Assembly: GCA_964391865.1 (NCBI GenBank)
Contig: CAYMNQ010000003.1
Location: 1-64,000 of the forward strand
Direction: 5' to 3'
Length of the DNA: 64,000 bases
Source of the DNA: an uncultured Phycisphaeraceae bacterium
GTDB taxonomy: Bacteria; Planctomycetota; Phycisphaerae; Phycisphaerales; UBA1924
Shown here in pieces: positions 11,198 to 52,484 of the stretch. The notes under the pieces were generated by a model. That model did no database searches, was not told the origin of the DNA, and saw only the letters and a list, made by a program, of their open reading frames with translations. The translations under genes were made by a program, and so were the position numbers. Within the stretch, counting starts at the first letter, position 1. Each line of letters opens with the position of its first letter.

Positions 11198-11563
11198 GTG
11201 ATTGTGCTGGTGTTGTACGCCGTGCCGGTGTGGGCGCTGATCTACCTGCTGCGCCGGCGGGTGGTGGGGCTGGTTGTGTTGGGGGTGGCGACGGCGTTGG
11301 TGCCGCTGCTGATCCATGTGGAGTCGGCGGCGATCGGGCCCTGGGCGGGGATGCTGCGGATCATCGGGGCGTCGTACGCGGGGCTGATCGCGGTCGTGGG
11401 TGTGCTGCTGTGGTTGCAGCGCCGTGCGGCGCGGGGTCACGAGTGCCGGCACTGTTTGTACGACCTGACGGGGAATGTCACGGGCGTGTGCCCGGAGTGC
11501 GGGCACGTGACGCCTGATGTGACGGCGGGGGAGGTGCGCCGGGCGAAGAAGGGGAAGGCGTAA
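11198..11563 (+). CDS. small membrane protein with C-terminal zinc ribbon (short member of the C-x2-C...CPECG family)
   Basis: Two TM helices then RRAARGHECRHCLYDLTGNVTGVCPECGHV. This matches the tail motif of the three larger paralogs (48806..49525, 49527..50219, 58172..58936). GTG start; GGAG upstream. Confidence 0.5.
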   Translation: MIVLVLYAVPVWALIYLLRRRVVGLVVLGVATALVPLLIHVESAAIGPWAGMLRIIGASYAGLIAVVGVLLWLQRRAARGHECRHCLYDLTGNVTGVCPECGHVTPDVTAGEVRRAKKGKA

Positions 11564-11600
11564 GTCGGAAGGGCGGAAGGCGGAGGTCGGAAGGGGGAAG
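11553..11600. repeat. purine-rich GGAAGG-type repeat, also present at window positions 1-30
   Basis: gtcggaagggcggaaggcggaggtcggaagggggaag directly after the 11198..11563 stop. Compare ggaaggtcggaaggcggaag at 1-20. Confidence 0.3.
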
Positions 11601-11655
11601 TGGCGGGTTTCGGGGGGTCGGGGGTCGGGTTTGGCGCACCGCGCATTCGCGCATC

Positions 11656-12897
11656 GTGCACCGCGCGGCCGCTCATATACTCGCCCGCGTGCGTGATCCT
11701 TCGTTTATTTATCTCGACAACGCCGCGACGAGCTGGCCCAAGCCGGCGGTTGTGGGCGAAGAGATGGCGCGGTTTCTTGCGGAATCGGCGGGGAATCCGG
11801 GGCGCGGCGGGCACGCGCTGGCGCGCGAGGCGGCGGGGCACATCGAGCGGGCGCGGGCGGCGCTGGCGAGATTGATCGGCGCGGAGAAGCCGGAGCGCGT
11901 GGTGCTGACGCCCGGCTGCACGGACTCGGTGAATCTCGCCGTGCATGGGTGGTTGTGGAAGTGTCTGCATGAGGCACGGCGCGGAGGGGGCAAGCCTCAT
12001 GTGGTGATGTCGAGCGTGGAGCATAACGCGGTGGGGCGGTCGCTGCACGCGCATCAAGAAGACGGCGAGATCACGCTGACGATTGTGCCGTGCGATGAGC
12101 GCGGGTACGTCAGCGCGGCGGCGATGCTCGGGGCGTGCGACGAGCGGACGGTGCTGGTGTGCCTGTCGCACGCGTCGAACGCGTGCGGCACGATCCAGCC
12201 GGTGCGCGAGGTCGGCGCGGGGCTGCGGGCGCGCTCGCCCGGCGCGCTGTTGATGGTGGATGCGGCGCAGACGGCGGGGCATCTGCCGATCGATGTGCGC
12301 GCGATGGATATTGACCTGCTGACGATCGCGGGGCACAAGGGGCTGCTGGGTCCGACGGGGACGGGGGCGCTGTATGTCGGGCCGCTGGCGTTCAGCGATG
12401 AGCCGGATGGGCCGCGGCTGCACTGCACGCGCTCGGGCGGGACGGGCGCGAAAAGCCCGGGGCTTGAGATGCCGGCGGAGTTGCCGGATGCGCTGGAAGC
12501 GGGGACGAGCAACGCGGTGGGCTTCGCTGGGTTGCTCGCGGCGATGGAGCACAAACCGGCCAACGCGCACGAGAACGAGACGGCGCGCACGGCGGAGTTG
12601 CTCGAGGGCCTGCGCGCGATCCGCGGGGTGAAGATCTACGGTGTGGAGAACGCGCACGATCGGACGGCGGTGGTGATGTTCAACATCGAGGGGATGCCGC
12701 CGAGGGATGTGGGCGCGATTCTGGACGGTGAATTCACTATCGCGGTGCGGGCGGGGCTCCACTGTGCGCCGATGCTGCACAAGTCGCTGCGCACGTTCCC
12801 GGATGGCGCGGTGCGCGCGAGCCCGGGGTGGTCGACGACGCGCGAGCAGGTGGAGCGGTTGATTCGCGCGGTGGGGGAGATCGCGGGTTCGCGGTGA
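11656..12897 (+). CDS. class-V aminotransferase / cysteine desulfurase (NifS/SufS-like)
   Basis: IYLDNAATSWPKP N-terminal signature. PLP-lysine context TIAGHKGLLGP. Class-V fold throughout. GTG start at 11656; alternative GTG at 11689. Confidence 0.85.
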   Translation: MHRAAAHILARVRDPSFIYLDNAATSWPKPAVVGEEMARFLAESAGNPGRGGHALAREAAGHIERARAALARLIGAEKPERVVLTPGCTDSVNLAVHGWLWKCLHEARRGGGKPHVVMSSVEHNAVGRSLHAHQEDGEITLTIVPCDERGYVSAAAMLGACDERTVLVCLSHASNACGTIQPVREVGAGLRARSPGALLMVDAAQTAGHLPIDVRAMDIDLLTIAGHKGLLGPTGTGALYVGPLAFSDEPDGPRLHCTRSGGTGAKSPGLEMPAELPDALEAGTSNAVGFAGLLAAMEHKPANAHENETARTAELLEGLRAIRGVKIYGVENAHDRTAVVMFNIEGMPPRDVGAILDGEFTIAVRAGLHCAPMLHKSLRTFPDGAVRASPGWSTTREQVERLIRAVGEIAGSR

Positions 12898-42585: not shown

Positions 42586-42619
42586 TTCACCACAGAGGAC
42601 ACAGAGAGCACAGAGGTGG
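42586..42619. repeat. inverted copy of a ~30-bp repeat (GTGCTCTCTGTGTYCTCTGTGGTGAA family)
   Basis: ttcaccacagaggacacagagagcacagaggtgg. Its reverse complement matches 43155..43188 at about 30/33 positions. Includes a GAATTC site. Confidence 0.5.
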
Positions 42620-42646
42620 TTCAGAGTTGGGAATGGGTTCAGACCG

Positions 42647-43015
42647 ATGCACGAGCAGTTGACAGAACGGATCATCGGCGCGGCGATCGAGGTGCATCGC
42701 GCGCTGGGGCCGGGCCTGCTCGAATCCGCGTACGAGGCGTGCCTCTGCCACGAACTCTCGAAGCAGGGGATTGCATTCCAACGCCAGGCCGAAATGCCGG
42801 TGGTCTACGACGGCGAGCGGATCGACTGCGGCTACCGGCTCGATCTCGTCGTCGAGGGCTCCGTTATCGAGGAATTGAAGAGCGTCGAAGAACTCTCCCC
42901 GATCCACGAAGCCCAACTGCTTACTTACCTCAGGCTCTCCGGCTTGAAGGTCGGCTTGCTCATCAACTTCAACGTCAATCTCCTCAAGGACGGCGTGAAA
43001 CGCCGGGTGATGTAG
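42647..43015 (+). CDS. GxxExxY protein (PD-(D/E)xK-superfamily, IVS-associated type)
   Basis: [37 protein letters not shown]...[19 protein letters not shown] is the family hallmark. Lower GC. Flanked by the inverted repeats above and below. Confidence 0.8.
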
Positions 43016-43154
43016 ACACTTTGCCTTTACGCCCTCGCAACGCATGGCGGCCACAACAACTACAAACTGATTCTGTTCGTCATCGCTCCCTTCCTCCCGC
43101 TGGCTTTCCGGTTCTTTGTCTCGTCTGGTTCTGACCTGAATTCAATCAGATTTC

Positions 43155-43188
43155 CAACTCCGTGCTCTCTGTGTTCTCTGTGGTGAAA
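43155..43188. repeat. direct copy of the ~30-bp repeat, forming the 5' leader/RBS of ugd
   Basis: ccaactccgtgctctctgtgttctctgtggtgaa followed by AGGTTTGAAGATG. Confidence 0.5.
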
Positions 43189-43197
43189 GGTTTGAAG

Positions 43198-46897: not shown

Positions 46898-47557
46898 TCA
46901 CCGACAATTCGGGCATGGGCACTCGAACCCCCACGCATTGATCACCACCGCCAGATCGCCCAGCCCCACCTGACCATCGCCATCCAAATCCTGCAGCGCC
47001 CGCGGCGAGTCGTCCCCCCACGCGCCGATGATCGACGCGATATCGCCCAGCCCCACGAACCCGTCGCCGTCGAGGTCCGCCGGGCAGTCAGGGATGTACT
47101 CGACATCGAACGATGAATCGGTGAAGCGCCCGATCACCGCCAGGCCGCCGGGCAGCCCGCTCTCCCGCACCATGATCCACGTCGCGAACGGGTTGCCGAA
47201 GAAATCGATCTCGCCGTTCAGATCCGCGGTCTCGAACTCGGCGCTGAACGTGCCCTGCCCGTTCCATCCCAGCGATGAACCGATCACCGCCGTGCCGCGC
47301 GTCGCGTGGATCAGGAACACCCTCACATCCGCGGCGTCATACCCGCCGACCGTCTCAAACGTCGCCCGCACGCGCGTGTTCACCACCCGCCCCTGCGCCG
47401 TGCTGACGATCAGCGACTCCTTCGCCGGCAGCGCGGTCATCTCCTCCGGGATCGCAAAGCTCATCACCCGCGTGTACACCGGGCCCGCCGCCGCCGCCGC
47501 GCCGAGCGATGCGAACACCGCCAGCGCCGCCGCCTTCACCATTCGATGATCTCGCAT
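46898..47557 (-). CDS. small secreted protein with C-terminal dockerin-type module
   Basis: Signal peptide MMRDHRMVKAAALAVFASLGAAAAAG. GGAGGTGG RBS. C-term CPADLDGDGFVGLGDIASIIGAWG...DLDGDGQVGLGDLAVVINAWGFECPCPNCR. Confidence 0.6.
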   Translation of the reverse strand: MRDHRMVKAAALAVFASLGAAAAAGPVYTRVMSFAIPEEMTALPAKESLIVSTAQGRVVNTRVRATFETVGGYDAADVRVFLIHATRGTAVIGSSLGWNGQGTFSAEFETADLNGEIDFFGNPFATWIMVRESGLPGGLAVIGRFTDSSFDVEYIPDCPADLDGDGFVGLGDIASIIGAWGDDSPRALQDLDGDGQVGLGDLAVVINAWGFECPCPNCR

Positions 47558-47612
47558 CATCCACCTCCAGCCCACGCCGATTCAATCGAGCATCTCTCCC
47601 TATGCCGCTAAA

Positions 47613-48836
47613 TCAGGCGACGGTTTCCTCGCCGCCGTCATCGCCCTCCGCCCCCACCCCGGCTCCCGCCGTCTCGCGCGGGAACCAGCGCAGACCGCCC
47701 GCTTCGAACTCATCCAGCGCCGCGCGCACCCCCGCCGCGTCCGGCGCGGTGCGCACCCGCTCGCGCAGCGGCTTGCACGGCCCCAGCTTCTTCGCGAACC
47801 ACGCGATCCGCCGCCGGATGTGATTCATCGCGTACCGCTCGTCGCGGTATTCGAGCATCAGGGCGAAGTACCGGCGGATGATCGCGAGTTTTTCCGCGAG
47901 CGGGGGGTCGGCGGGGGAAAGTCCAAAGTCCAAAGTCACAAAGTCCAAATGCTGGCGTGACCCGGTCTGGCTCGGGCTCAACTGTCTTTCAATTGCACTT
48001 TGCTCATTTGCACTTTGGACTTTCTGAACCTCCCACCCCTGCCGGAAGATCCACGGCGCCGCCAGCGCCCCGCGCCCGATCATCACGCCGTCGCAGCCGG
48101 TGCGCTCCATCATGTCGATCACGCCGAGGGCGGTGGTCACGTCGCCGTTGCCGAGCACGGGGATCGCGCCGTCAACCGATTCGACCACGCGACGGATGCC
48201 CTCGTGGTTCACGCCGCCCGTAAACTTCTGCTCCGTCGTGCGCCCATGCACCGTGACGAGTTGAATCCCGGCGCCCGCGAGATCGCGCGCCAGCCGGGGG
48301 GCGACGAACCGCTCGTTATCCCAGCCGAGGCGCATCTTCGCGGTGACGGGCACGCGCCCGGCGCTGGCGCGCTCCGCCGCGCGGACCACCATCTCCGCGA
48401 GGTGCACCGTGGCGCACGGGTCGCACAGCAGCATCGACCCGCCGTTCTTCTTCGTCACTTTGTCGACGGGGCAGCCCATGTTGATGTCGATCACCGTCGC
48501 GCCGTGATCGACGGCCCAGCGCGCCCCCTCCGCCAGAATCTCCCCCTCCGCCCCGTACAGCTGCATGCACAAGGGCTTGTCCAGCTCGTTCGTCGCCGCC
48601 AGATCAAGCGAGTGCATCGACCCGCGCAAGAGCCCGTGCGGCGAGAGCAAATCCGTACACGCGAGGCCAAGCCCGCCCTGCTCGCGGCACACAATCCGGA
48701 ACGCCAAATCGCAATACCCCGCGATCGGCGCGAGCAACAGATTGCTCCGCAGCGTCACCGCCCCGATCGTCAGCGGCACGCCGACACGCGGATTCGCGCG
48801 AGCGCTTAAGCGGGTTGGCTGGGAGGTGTCGTGCAT
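47613..48836 (-). CDS. dus: tRNA-dihydrouridine synthase carrying an in-frame ~36-codon insertion
   Basis: Dus motifs LAPIAGYCDLAFR, DINMGCP, GRGALAAPWIF. Between PWIFRQ and the conserved C-terminal helix lies QGWEVQKVQSANEQSAIERQLSPSQTGSRQHLDFVTLDFGLS, encoded by the low-GC palindromic element at 47917..48024. Confidence 0.75.
   Translation of the reverse strand: MHDTSQPTRLSARANPRVGVPLTIGAVTLRSNLLLAPIAGYCDLAFRIVCREQGGLGLACTDLLSPHGLLRGSMHSLDLAATNELDKPLCMQLYGAEGEILAEGARWAVDHGATVIDINMGCPVDKVTKKNGGSMLLCDPCATVHLAEMVVRAAERASAGRVPVTAKMRLGWDNERFVAPRLARDLAGAGIQLVTVHGRTTEQKFTGGVNHEGIRRVVESVDGAIPVLGNGDVTTALGVIDMMERTGCDGVMIGRGALAAPWIFRQGWEVQKVQSANEQSAIERQLSPSQTGSRQHLDFVTLDFGLSPADPPLAEKLAIIRRYFALMLEYRDERYAMNHIRRRIAWFAKKLGPCKPLRERVRTAPDAAGVRAALDEFEAGGLRWFPRETAGAGVGAEGDDGGEETVA
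47917..48024. repeat. MITE-like low-GC inverted-repeat element inserted in-frame within dus
   Basis: GAAAGTCCAAAGTCCAAAGTCACAAAGTCCAAATG ... CATTGCACTTTGCTCATTTGCACTTTGGACTTTC. The outer 13 bp are perfectly complementary. About 108 bp, a multiple of 3. GC far below its surroundings. Confidence 0.5.
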
Positions 48837-49525
48837 GAAGAGGAGGGAATGGTAGCCCCGCCGCATTCCGGGCAGCGGGCGGCGCTGAGGCCGTGAAGGT
48901 CGTAGCCGCACGCGGGGCAAAGTCCGCGCTGGCGGCGGCGCAGCCGGCGAGTCGTCGGAACAACAGTGATCGCCGCGAGCCACAGCGCGGCATAGAACAG
49001 GGCATCAATCAACATCGCGGGACAGAGTGCCGACGTCGGTAGAAGAATCAGCGAGTGGTGAGGATTCGCCGATCGCTTGGTCCAGTTCGGAACGCGCAGC
49101 CCTTCACGTACTCGCGTGGCGCTATACGGCTCGTCGGGGTAGTCAGCCGTTACGGCCGAACCACGAAGGCACTTGAACGGCCAACCTGCGCGGTTCACAT
49201 GAATGAAGTGAGTGATCGTCGGGAGATTGTCACGCCACCCAGCCGTCCACCGGGGCGCGACATCGATCCTGCGCTCAAAGTAGTACGCCGGGTGTGTCAT
49301 GGCGCGATAGGGATGGAGCCCCAACGACGAGTAGCCGGTCCACTCCTGAAGTTGCCCGTGCCAATACTGTTGTTCCGGGCTTCGAAACTGCGCGCCATCG
49401 GGCGGACGCGTGGCGAACGGTCCGAATCGAAGCTGAGCGGACATCGAGATTCCCCATGCCACCGCCACCGTCGTCAACACGCCGAGCGCGAGACACACCA
49501 CCACTCGCCACACCCAGCGCCGCAT
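48806..49525 (-). CDS. membrane protein with periplasmic domain and cytoplasmic C-terminal zinc ribbon (family member P2)
   Basis: N-term MRRWVWRVVVCLALGVLTTVAVAWG (TM1). Periplasmic segment contains GWPFKC. TM2 is followed by RRLRRRQRGLCPACGYDLHGLSAARCPECGG. Start chosen by homology to the adjacent paralog. Confidence 0.55.
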   Translation of the reverse strand: MRRWVWRVVVCLALGVLTTVAVAWGISMSAQLRFGPFATRPPDGAQFRSPEQQYWHGQLQEWTGYSSLGLHPYRAMTHPAYYFERRIDVAPRWTAGWRDNLPTITHFIHVNRAGWPFKCLRGSAVTADYPDEPYSATRVREGLRVPNWTKRSANPHHSLILLPTSALCPAMLIDALFYAALWLAAITVVPTTRRLRRRQRGLCPACGYDLHGLSAARCPECGGATIPSSSCTTPPSQPA

Positions 49526-50250: not shown

Positions 50251-50372
50251 TCCGGCTCCCAGCCTCAAGCTCCAAGCTTCAAGCTTCCGGTCTCCGGCCC
50301 CCAACTCAAAACCCCCAACCCAAAACCCGCAGCACTCAGCACTCGTTCCTCAGCACTCAGCTCCCCCGCTCC
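50251..50372. repeat. low-complexity direct-repeat tract upstream of P3
   Basis: cctcaagctccaagcttcaagcttcc; ccaactcaaaacccccaacccaaaaccc; gcagcactcagcactcgttcctcagcactcagc. Resembles the CTCAAA/CTCCAA units of the IRs at 15785 and 16238. Confidence 0.4.
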
Positions 50373-50880: not shown

Positions 50881-51192
50881 TCAAACCCCCGGTGTCGCGT
50901 CGAGCTGCGCCGCGAGATCGAAATCCTTCTGCGTGATCCCGCCCGCGTCGTGCGTGTTGAGCGAGAGCGTGACCTTGTTCCAGCGGATGAGGATGTCCGG
51001 GTGGTGCTGCACCTTCTCGGCGAGTTCCGCCGCGCGATTCACGAACTTCATGGCGGCGATGAAATCCTTGAACTGGTACGTCCGCTGGATCGACCCCGCC
51101 ACCTCGGCCCATTGCGGCAGAGGCTTCAACTGGTCCGCGATCTGCTCTTCCGTCAGCTTCTGCGGGGCTTTGGTGCTCGCTTTCGCCGCCAT
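50881..51192 (-). CDS. phhB: pterin-4a-carbinolamine dehydratase
   Basis: LTEEQIADQLKPLPQWAEV...YQFKDFIAAMKFVNRAAELAEKVQHHPDILIRWNKVTLSLNTHDAGGIT matches the PCD/DCoH family. Confidence 0.8.
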   Translation of the reverse strand: MAAKASTKAPQKLTEEQIADQLKPLPQWAEVAGSIQRTYQFKDFIAAMKFVNRAAELAEKVQHHPDILIRWNKVTLSLNTHDAGGITQKDFDLAAQLDATPGV

Positions 51193-51463
51193 GGTGATCG
51201 CCTCCCTCGCCGCCCAGCGGCGTGAACCACCAGCCTATCGCGCGGCGAACGCCCGTGCCGCGCTCTTGTTGACGCATTGAACCACGGAGGCACGGGGGAC
51301 GCGGAGGAGAGATTCTTCAACGCGAAGATCGCGAAGGGCGCAAAGAGATGAAGGCAAAAGAGAGGAGATGACAAGAGAACGGGATAGACCAAGAACAAAC
51401 TCGCTCTGACCCCCGACGCATTTTCCCTCTTCGCGCTCTCTGCGATCTTCGCGTTATAAATCC

Positions 51464-51495
51464 CCGTTCCGTGCTCTCCGTGTCTCTGTGGTGAA
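51464..51495. repeat. third copy of the ~30-bp GTGCTCTC..CTGTGGTGAA repeat, forming the gluQ leader
   Basis: ccgttccgtgctctccgtgtctctgtggtgaatcttgaag precedes the gluQ start, as the copy at 43155 precedes ugd. Confidence 0.45.
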
Positions 51496-51497
51496 TC

Positions 51498-52484
51498 TTG
51501 AAGACGCCCACTCCCACCACCCGCCTTGCCCCGTCGCCCACCGGCGCGCTGCACCTGGGCAACGCGCGCACGTTCCTCATCAACTGGGCGCTCGCGCGCC
51601 GGCTCGGCTGGCGCATCGTGCTGCGCATCGAAGACCTCGACGGCCCGCGCATCAAGCCCGGCGCCGCCGAGGCGTGCATCGACACGCTCCGCTGGCTCGG
51701 CATCGACTGGGATACCGGCCCCATCATCCAGTCGCACGACCTGTCGCCGTACCTCGATGCGATGCGCACACTTGCCGCCCGCGCCGCCGCGTACCCCTCC
51801 GAACTCACGCGCTCGGAGATCGAAGCCGCCGCCAGCGCCCCGCAGGAACTCGGCGCCGATCCGGGCGCGCCCGTCGGCACGGGCGAAATCCGCTTCCCGC
51901 CCGAGCTGCGCCCCGCGCTGCACCCGCGCGAGTTCGTCGACGCCGAGACGAACTGGCGCTTCGCCGTCCCCGACCGGGCGGTGGAGTTCGCCGACGACTT
52001 CGCGGGCCCGCAGCGCGGCCGCCCCATCGACACCATCGGCGACTTCGTGATCTGGACCAAGCGCGCGCAGCCGTCGTACCAGCTCGCGGTCGTGGTGGAT
52101 GATGCGCGCCAGGGCGTGACGCACATCGTCCGCGGGGACGACCTGCTCGACTCCGCCGCGCGTCAACTGCTGCTCTACGAAGCACTGAATCTCGCGCCGA
52201 TCCCGCGCTACTGCCACCTGCCGCTGGTCGTCGGCACCGACGGCCGCCGGCTCGCGAAGCGCCACGGCGACACCCGGCTTGATACCTACCGCGCCCGCGG
52301 CGTCCCCGCCGAGCGCGTCATCGGGCTGCTCGCCTACTGGAGCGGCGTGACCAACCCCGACCAACCTCCGAAGCCCATGTCCGCCGCCGAATACGCCGCC
52401 GGGTTTGAGCTGAACCGACTCCCCCGCGCGCGGGTAACCTTCACCAACAACGACGATCGCTGGCTCACGAAAACCAACTCCTGA
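51498..52484 (+). CDS. gluQ: glutamyl-Q tRNA(Asp) synthetase
   Basis: RLAPSPTGALHLGNARTFLINW (HIGH-type motif). Truncated GluRS catalytic domain only, about 328 aa. Non-ATG (TTG) start per the track. Confidence 0.8.
   Translation: MKTPTPTTRLAPSPTGALHLGNARTFLINWALARRLGWRIVLRIEDLDGPRIKPGAAEACIDTLRWLGIDWDTGPIIQSHDLSPYLDAMRTLAARAAAYPSELTRSEIEAAASAPQELGADPGAPVGTGEIRFPPELRPALHPREFVDAETNWRFAVPDRAVEFADDFAGPQRGRPIDTIGDFVIWTKRAQPSYQLAVVVDDARQGVTHIVRGDDLLDSAARQLLLYEALNLAPIPRYCHLPLVVGTDGRRLAKRHGDTRLDTYRARGVPAERVIGLLAYWSGVTNPDQPPKPMSAAEYAAGFELNRLPRARVTFTNNDDRWLTKTNS

Follow-up and report, generated by a model that had tools for sequence, protein, structure and literature searches.

Could a strongly palindromic, repeat-built segment of DNA be at home inside the coding frame of a conserved enzyme gene? 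The question is raised by positions 47917-48024 of the window, by which we mean the whole stretch of DNA analysed here (64,000 nucleotides, positions 1 to 64,000 of contig CAYMNQ010000003.1 from an uncultured Phycisphaeraceae bacterium). At these positions, a 108-bp element lies within a gene for a tRNA-dihydrouridine synthase of the DusB type (dus, here also dusB). We conclude that the element is a resident and very fast-evolving hairpin cassette, probably an old one.

A sequence-only reading of the window had described a low-G+C element of about 108 bp with perfect 13-bp inverted ends and internal repeats, and exactly such an element is present. Its parts, none of which is assigned a strand, are listed below; the arms come from an inverted-repeat search and from Tandem Repeats Finder (TRF).

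47917..48024, no strand: palindromic heptamer-repeat element, 108 bp, encoding residues 321-356 in frame, G+C content 0.48.
47917..47951, no strand: mRNA-3' arm, plus strand GAAAGTCC AAAGTCC AAAGTCAC AAAGTCC AAATG, translated as ..HLDFVTLDFGLS.
47952..47989, no strand: loop or spacer, 38 nt, richer in G+C and with a small internal stem, encoding ..RQLSPSQTGSRQ...
47990..48024, no strand: mRNA-5' arm, coding strand GAAAGTCCAAAGTGCAAATGAGCAAAGTGCAATTG, translated as KVQSANEQSAI.
47917..47929, no strand: perfect 13-bp terminal repeat, left copy, GAAAGTCCAAAGT.
48012..48024, no strand: perfect 13-bp terminal repeat, right copy, ACTTTGGACTTTC.

The left and right copies are exact reverse complements and mark both ends of the element, which, with two 35-nt arms that are 80% complementary and 38 nt apart, is the longest inverted repeat anywhere in the window. 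The 13-mer of the ends, sought with up to two mismatches, was matched three times in the window, always within the element, compared with an expectation of 0.34, and three matches were reached in none of 100 shuffles. Both arms consist of short runs of tandem units, 7-8 nt in length (GTCCAAA/GTGCAAA; in general form NNNCAAA on the coding strand), in which TRF detected period-7 arrays of AAAGTCC at 47918-47949 (4.4 copies, 92% matches) and at 47993-48023 (4.3 copies). The "terminal inverted repeats" are just the outermost units of these two inverted heptamer arrays. Folded as RNA, the coding strand of the element reaches -53.7 kcal/mol (z = -5.2) and the opposite strand -50.5 kcal/mol (z = -3.8). 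Its low G+C content compares with 0.70 for the rest of dusB and 0.67 for the window.

Where in the protein does this DNA lie? The host open reading frame (ORF) matched the Pfam family Dus (PF01207, 4.6e-66) and no other family, and its best solved relative is Escherichia coli DusB (6EI9, 2.7e-41). The gene and its two domains are as follows.

47613..48983, minus strand: gene for a DusB-type tRNA-dihydrouridine synthase (Pfam PF01207), longest ORF 456 codons.
48039..48773, minus strand: catalytic TIM-barrel domain, residues 71-315, ending in the PWIFRQ motif (aligned to DusB 6EI9 20-255).
47703..47906, minus strand: C-terminal helical (tRNA-binding) domain, residues 360-427 (mainly the AlphaFold2 helices 362-427, with a predicted local distance difference test score, pLDDT, of about 90 or higher).

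Residues 71-315 of the host protein aligned to residues 20-255 of 6EI9, and a second stretch, residues 360-425, aligned weakly and below significance to residues 269-334; because the flanking residues align in this way, the insert sits in the linker that joins the barrel to the helical domain (DusB residues 255-269). Read along the gene, the element begins at the third base of Q320 and ends at the second base of S356, so that 36 amino acids (321-356) lie within it, with the frame open. Pfam, the 6EI9 alignment and the translation thus agree with the placement in the sequence-only reading, inside dus, after PWIF and before the C-terminal helical domain, with the frame unbroken, and the peptide quoted there is the true translation of the insert. 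The figure of about 36 added residues given there holds for what is encoded within the element; since the linker has 54 residues here versus 22-23 in insert-free orthologues, the net gain is about 31 residues (93 nt), not 36. The segment is an addition to the ancestral 22-23-residue Dus linker, and the proposal of an insertion in a tolerated loop was right in this sense: the DNA is extra, and it lies in an interdomain loop that accepts such DNA.

An AlphaFold2 model of the host protein, built on 25 sequences (predicted template modelling score 0.74), gave both Dus domains with high confidence apart from short low-confidence stretches at residues 114-122 and 176-180. In this model, the first half of the insert extends the helix 312-335, after which the pLDDT falls below 50 at residues 339-354. 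At the other end of the protein, a database entry (P0001) that is 100% identical over 417 amino acids starts at M40, which corresponds to 47613-48866, and the longest dus ORF has 39 extra codons (48867-48983) upstream of that start. As this additional N-terminus is unconserved and has a pLDDT of about 30, translation probably starts at 48866 or at a site further downstream.

Do the relatives of this gene carry the same segment? A protein search returned thousands of Dus homologues, the named ones coming from Phycisphaerales and Planctomycetota. An alignment of the best 24, with 101 invariant columns, shows inserts of variable length and sequence at exactly the position of the element, and the peptides of these inserts are repeat-like (for example QIANGQIAN...DLRFAIC and QSSNSQTSN...DLSFENLSF). 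Among the best 120 homologues, the linker is canonical in at least 54 and longer, at 29 to 84 residues, in about 40; since so many of the closest homologues do without the insert, it is dispensable.

At the DNA level, we read the site in eleven further Phycisphaerales dus genes (L001, L002, L004 and L205-L212) together with the window. Strong hairpins built from other heptamers (GCTCAAA, TCGCAAA/TAGCAAA, ATCGCAA/ATGGCAA) occupy it in four of them (L001, L002, L004 and L209), asymmetric, decayed or one-armed hairpins in five (L205, L206, L207, L208 and L212, the last of which has lost the loop and the 3' arm), and G+C-rich hairpins of other kinds in two (L210 and L211). On the coding strand, the heptamer hairpins invariably have (NNNCAAA)n as the 5' arm and (TTTGNNN)n as the 3' arm, and the elements differ in length (108 nt in the window, 117 in L001, 96 in L002 and 123 in L206). 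The frame across the insert is open in the window and in all eleven orthologues, which, together with the single Pfam family, speaks against the recoding or intein-type alternative raised in the sequence-only reading. Furthermore, L001 and L002 have an 8-nt unit exactly where a continued TTTGAGC heptamer would yield an in-frame TGA, and this avoidance fits translation through the element.

The stems are very stable, folding at -46 to -63 kcal/mol, compared with -31 to -44 kcal/mol for shuffles, and folding energies are near those of shuffles in the decayed or one-armed L207, L208 and L212. A folding advantage of the mRNA strand was sought across the orthologues and no consistent one was found, the sense strand being the better folder in 5 of 11, which argues for a palindrome at the DNA level rather than an RNA structure selected in the transcript. 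Relatives thus do have a segment at this site, which confirms the insert position; the lineage-specific loop of normal G+C content that the sequence-only reading had named as its counter-case is not what they hold, the segment being low in G+C, palindromic and of different sequence from gene to gene. Consequently, the segment is not a protein loop that has been conserved, nor is it a private insertion of recent origin.

How fast does the insert change, compared with the gene around it? The flanking gene DNA of L001, the closest relative (85% protein identity), matches that of the window at 89-91% identity, whereas identity within the element is 56%. Some pairs of orthologues have 95-97% identity in the Dus core and yet carry unrelated inserts. 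The outermost stem (GAAAGCTCA ... TGAGCTTYC) is common to L002 and L206, whose interiors differ, with GCTCAAA arrays in L002 and TCGCAAATGGCCAAA arrays in L206. Between L004 and L212, the phase of CAAA is kept and nearly all other positions of the unit differ. These results show that the element changes far faster than its host gene; because the inserts differ while the Dus cores and flanks stay near-identical, we regard the dus site as a hypervariable cassette in a conserved gene.

Furthermore, the two arms change together. We compared the 13-bp outer stem among the window, L001 and L002, anchoring the comparison on the flanks, the inserts themselves being alignable only via their structure. 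Four of the 13 pairs differ, and each time both partners have changed (A-T to C-G, T-A to C-G, C-G to T-A and T-A to C-G), so that no pair is broken. A formal covariation test on all inserts was rejected, as an alignment that depends on the structure would have made it circular.

Is the same loop occupied in more distant Dus genes? A metagenome scan gave at least 80 Dus loci, and the 80 listed are all relatives at 57% identity or lower. Most of these have the canonical ...L-x-T-G-E-L-L-P-E-P... linker. Within the same few codons, five of them (L147, L151, L152, L165 and L188) have strong hairpins of unrelated sequence families, inserted in frame and folding at -50 to -91 kcal/mol; examples are GTAGGACAGGC.../...GCCTGTCCTAC, GTAGCAGCGGACGTGAGTC.../...GACTCACGTCGGCTGCTG and a perfect 22-bp GAAGTGAGAAGTGCGAAGGGCG stem. 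Because hairpins of unrelated families are found there, the Dus linker is a recurrent home of hairpin DNA in Planctomycetota-type genomes. Three of the metagenome contigs (L157, L188 and L194) stop at or just after the linker site, as multicopy repeats that break assemblies would cause them to do.

Could the element belong to a wider class? The arm motif GAAAGTCCAAAGTSCAAA, scanned in one genome per species, was found at a minimum of 120 loci; the source genome is not among the matches listed, which come from Acidobacteriota, Verrucomicrobiota, Chloroflexota, Bacteroidota (including cultured Flavobacterium and Mucilaginibacter), Planctomycetota and other phyla. The loci are tandem heptamer arrays with variant units, and very often an inverted array follows 10-60 nt further on. 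For about 33 of the 120 listed arrays, the reading frame is free of stops over at least 100 codons on either side. Pfam searches on five in-frame hosts placed the array inside or between domains in a protein kinase, a NuoG-like protein, a CobN-like chelatase and the C-terminus of a DnaE-type polymerase; the fifth array lies between IGPS and PALP (trpC/trpB) in an open frame and may be an intergenic hairpin that is read through. In the DnaE-type polymerase III alpha subunits of Pyrinomonadaceae/Blastocatellia (about 1200 amino acids; L059, L035, L098 and L067), there are three separate in-frame hairpin sites whose positions are conserved across species and whose length and sequence are not, L067 having a different insert at site 2; the insert peptides are of the kind ESPKSKVQSP...TLDIGHWTLD. 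Across about 165 kb, made up of the window and the loci of five relatives, all other strong low-G+C hairpins are intergenic. We infer that the element belongs to a class of heptamer-repeat hairpins that spans several phyla, is mostly intergenic and recurs in frame at permissive sites of housekeeping genes.

Several other loci of the scan deserve mention. In-frame (GTCCAAA)n arrays or hairpins occur in L107, L116, L049, L101, L009, L071, L011, L082 and L123, with hosts that include a Ser/Thr kinase domain. Judged by translation alone, hosts also include ArnT-like membrane proteins (with several arrays each), a HemL-like protein and the C-terminus of MetG, and one further array stands just before the C-terminal zinc motif of SecA. 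In a Planctomycetota metagenome-assembled genome (L043:32-300), (GTCCAAG/GTCCAAA)n forms a very long array, which has a short inverted partner and adjoins a tRNA-like sequence. In a Pirellulaceae locus (L007:540-680), a GTCCAAA array begins at the stop codon of an frr-like gene and is followed by a second hairpin, of the (ATTGCAA)n type.

What kind of process would produce such a pattern? The explanation that we favour, and consider reasonably probable, is that the element is a selfish or neutral, hypervariable heptamer-repeat hairpin acting at the DNA level, which has long occupied the dusB linker and yields a dispensable loop on translation; slippage, template switching and array replacement would both maintain and reshuffle it, with an open frame as the sole constraint. 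On this explanation, a hairpin would have been present at the dus site since before the diversification of this Phycisphaerales clade and would have persisted because the Dus linker accepts nearly any stop-free peptide. The product of the insert would be a loop of about 36 residues, helical in part and disordered in part, with which Dus function could dispense. Turnover would proceed by DNA-level processes, with no transposase: replication slippage would act within the 7-nt arrays, template switching within the hairpin (quasipalindrome correction) would keep the arms complementary, and whole arrays would probably be swapped with other heptamer arrays, with the phased CAAA as microhomology. Selection on dusB may act as a filter alone, passing lengths divisible by three and sequences free of stop codons. 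Quasipalindrome template switching is known from E. coli, where it makes imperfect inverted repeats more perfect (PMC7202029), and the both-sided changes in the outer stem are therefore explicable without selection. Template-switch mutagenesis is a mutational mechanism, not a family of elements, and we propose only that it may operate in the dus element.

Some observations weigh against this explanation. The wholesale replacement of arrays in near-identical genes is hard to achieve by point mutation and slippage alone, and it could reflect true mobility, a new element having entered an old hairpin. The unrelated hairpin families in the one loop of distant Dus genes exceed the coincidence that simple tolerance predicts, and this recurrence might mean that insertion is targeted to hairpins or that a hairpin at the domain boundary has a selected role. 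Furthermore, translation of the insert is a prediction, and the absence of a second copy, for which the sequence-only reading had asked that the genome be searched, holds for the 64-kb window.

Could the element then be mobile? A non-autonomous element, either a miniature inverted-repeat transposable element (MITE), the label given in the sequence-only reading, or one resembling repetitive extragenic palindromic (REP) sequences, might re-invade a "nest" in the dus linker with a preference for existing hairpins or arrays, so that the differing inserts would be successive insertions. We regard this as possible, if rather doubtful. The small size, low G+C content and terminal inverted repeats of the element are in its favor, as are the one heptamer sequence found across many phyla, the unrelated hairpin families in the same loop of distant genes, the metagenome contigs that end at the site, and the apparently nested arrangement in L206, where a TCGCAAATGGCCAAA-type hairpin lies within the retained outer stem of the GCTCAAA-type hairpin of L002. 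However, there is no target-site duplication at the element (the flanks, ...GGCGGGG|element|TGAACCTC..., contain no direct repeat) or in L001, L002 and L206, and, as in the window, no second copies of their own versions were found in the approximately 20-kb flanks of five relatives. When all ORFs within 2.5 kb of the 120 listed arrays were clustered, nothing recurred except orthologous host genes, and hence no transposase or nuclease. A GxxExxY gene of the window is flanked by a different kind of array, and a tblastn search for a link between it and the GTCCAAA arrays gave none, with one partial match. The MITE label is therefore not sustained: terminal inverted repeats are present, and neither a target-site duplication nor a parent transposon was found.

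A hairpin selected as RNA is a less likely explanation. It would stand between the two Dus domains and either pause the ribosome while the flavin mononucleotide-binding barrel folds co-translationally or control the processing or stability of the mRNA. The recurrence of a hairpin at one domain boundary in many lineages with unrelated sequences, the complementarity kept through both-sided changes and the stability of the stems relative to shuffles would all suit such a role. On the other hand, the many close homologues with a canonical linker have no insert at all, close relatives of the window gene have decayed or one-armed versions that fold near shuffles, the mRNA strand folds no better than its complement, a search of Rfam with positions 47500-48400 gave no relevant match at E <= 1, and hairpins of identical architecture often occur in intergenic DNA and within genes unrelated to dus. 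Still less credit can be given to a phase-variation (contingency) switch, in which the gain or loss of 7-nt units would shift the frame and turn dusB off and on. The unit length is not divisible by three and the arrays lie within a coding region, their content turns over extremely fast, and (GTCCAAA)n read from the sequence has no stops in all six frames; however, the arrays are short (2-4 units) and imperfect, there is no apparent reason for a phase-variable tRNA-modification enzyme, and all alleles seen are in frame, none of the 80 listed metagenome loci being frame-shifted at the site, an observation biased by how the loci were found. Finally, a lineage-specific protein loop under protein-level selection, with an incidental palindrome, seems to us highly improbable. 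A segment does occur at one position in many relatives, and the model continues the preceding helix into its first half; but the peptide is unconserved even at 95-97% Dus identity, residues 339-354 have the low pLDDT given above, and low G+C content with strong dyad symmetry is present in every lineage.

How does the element, taken as a resident hairpin cassette, compare with known repeat systems? The classic case of palindromic DNA in frame in housekeeping genes is that of the Rickettsia palindromic elements (RPEs; Ogata et al. 2000, as outlined in PMC10969869). In that outline, RPEs are palindromes of about 100-150 bp that are in frame, are translated as fold-compatible surface segments and occupy gene positions common to related species, and the dus element shares these features, including a permissive site. 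The difference is that RPEs, as presented there, form sequence families with a conserved peptide and come from Rickettsia only, whereas the dus inserts have neither conserved sequence nor conserved peptide; moreover, the dus element has arms of 7-nt units, has its content swapped in near-identical genes and belongs to a multi-phylum class.

Heptameric simple sequence repeats (SSRs) are closer in build. They are over-represented in bacteria, are ascribed to polymerase slippage and vary at fixed positions in close relatives, and some of the arrays in Xanthomonas occur as inverted pairs able to form stem-loops (PMC4692102); TAACTGA arrays have a patchy distribution over several phyla (Beggiatoa/cyanobacteria/Bacteroidetes) and no known carrier (PMC4679880). 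Like these SSRs (the cyanobacterial short tandemly repeated repetitive sequences, STRR, Xanthomonas GGGAATC and Nostoc GGGGAYT, PMC4692102; TAACTGA, PMC4679880), which have 2 to more than 20 copies of 7-nt units with variant units among them, the element consists of head-to-tail heptamers, is polymorphic in length and sequence at an orthologous position, and belongs to a class with patchy multi-phylum spread and no known mobilising enzyme. Unlike them, it is not intergenic: the described arrays are essentially intergenic with G-rich or TAACTGA units, and the element is paired and in frame in an enzyme gene. The published descriptions of heptamer SSRs do not extend to arrays that are paired and in frame within a conserved enzyme gene, and a full-text literature search for GTCCAAAGTCCAAA or its peptides found no paper. 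By analogy, the element appears to resemble RPEs in outcome and heptamer SSRs in build.

The likeness to other systems is more partial. Intragenic MITEs (the enterobacterial repetitive intergenic consensus, ERIC, and Anabaena MITEs; PMC10969869) are also small, richer in A+T than the host and bounded by terminal inverted repeats, and can give in-frame fusions, but they have target-site duplications, many near-identical copies and a parent insertion sequence with matching ends, none of which was found for the element, with copies sought in the window and in the flanks of five relatives. REP sequences and their composites (bacterial interspersed mosaic elements, BIMEs, and REPINs), which are mobilised by RAYT transposases (PMC3116915, PMC3733652), are likewise short hairpin repeats that last at orthologous positions and evolve within genomes; however, they measure 20-40 bp, are extragenic, carry conserved GTAG/CGTC heads and are tied to a RAYT gene, whereas the element measures 108 bp, is intragenic and has no such head. 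The tandem repeats of Borgs (PMC9879509) are rapidly evolving, recently formed repeats in ORFs that add tolerated disordered segments; their in-ORF units are divisible by three and are direct repeats only, in contrast to the 7-nt units and palindromic pairing of the element.

Other repeats lie elsewhere in the window. The GxxExxY gene (42647-43015, plus strand; TIGR04256, 1.6e-47) stands between inverted arrays of 9-nt units, ACCACAGAGGACACAGAGAGCACAGAGGTGG at 42586-42620 and CCGTGCTCTCTGTGTTCTCTGTGGTGA at 43160-43190, and the region 42586-43190 looks like a small cassette with repeat-array "terminal inverted repeats". An intergenic composite hairpin at 51283-51490, between a PCD-like ORF (50881-51192, minus strand) and a gluQ-like ORF (51498-52484, plus strand), has outer arms of the CACGGAGG/CTCCGTG kind seen around the GxxExxY gene and inner arms of 29 nt with 86% complementarity (51319-51347 and 51427-51455) that consist of 9-nt units; one possibility is that this hairpin derives from the GxxExxY cassette and lacks the gene. 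Intergenic DNA of L002 (15454-15581) and L206 (15470-15599) contains similar CACAGAG hairpins. Period-7 arrays occur past a gene end at 11548-11666, as (GAAGGCG)n, (GGGGGTC)n and (GCGCACC)n, and just downstream of an SRPBCC-like minus-strand gene at 50255-50361, as (GCTCCAA)n, (AACCCAA)n and (CAGCACT)n; on account of these further arrays, heptamer arrays appear to be common in the source genome.

What would such hairpins mean for the genes and genomes that carry them? For dusB itself, the consequence is probably small, namely a dispensable extra loop of about 31 residues in a tolerant linker. The pattern explains many odd low-complexity "inserts" and spurious peptides in annotations, such as KSKVQSP, LDFGLWT, QIANGQIAN and DLRFAIC, and hypervariable hairpins of the dus type may serve as strain-level markers. 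Paired in-frame heptamer arrays at fixed permissive positions in several phyla offer a natural system for the study of slippage, template switching and array replacement. The idea of "selfish DNA in protein-coding genes", put forward for Rickettsia, is extended here to free-living Planctomycetota, Acidobacteriota and other phyla, by an element that is built differently. Tentatively, and as a conjecture more likely to fail than to hold, heptamer-repeat hairpins may be a distinct, transposase-independent kind of selfish DNA in many phyla, which would colonise hairpins and arrays, swap cassettes via CAAA-type microhomology, keep its arms matched by template switching and form long-lived, hypervariable in-frame nests, such as the dusB linker in Planctomycetota and the three DnaE-type polymerase sites in Acidobacteriota. 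If this is true, these hairpins would be a general, undescribed source of variation in protein linkers.

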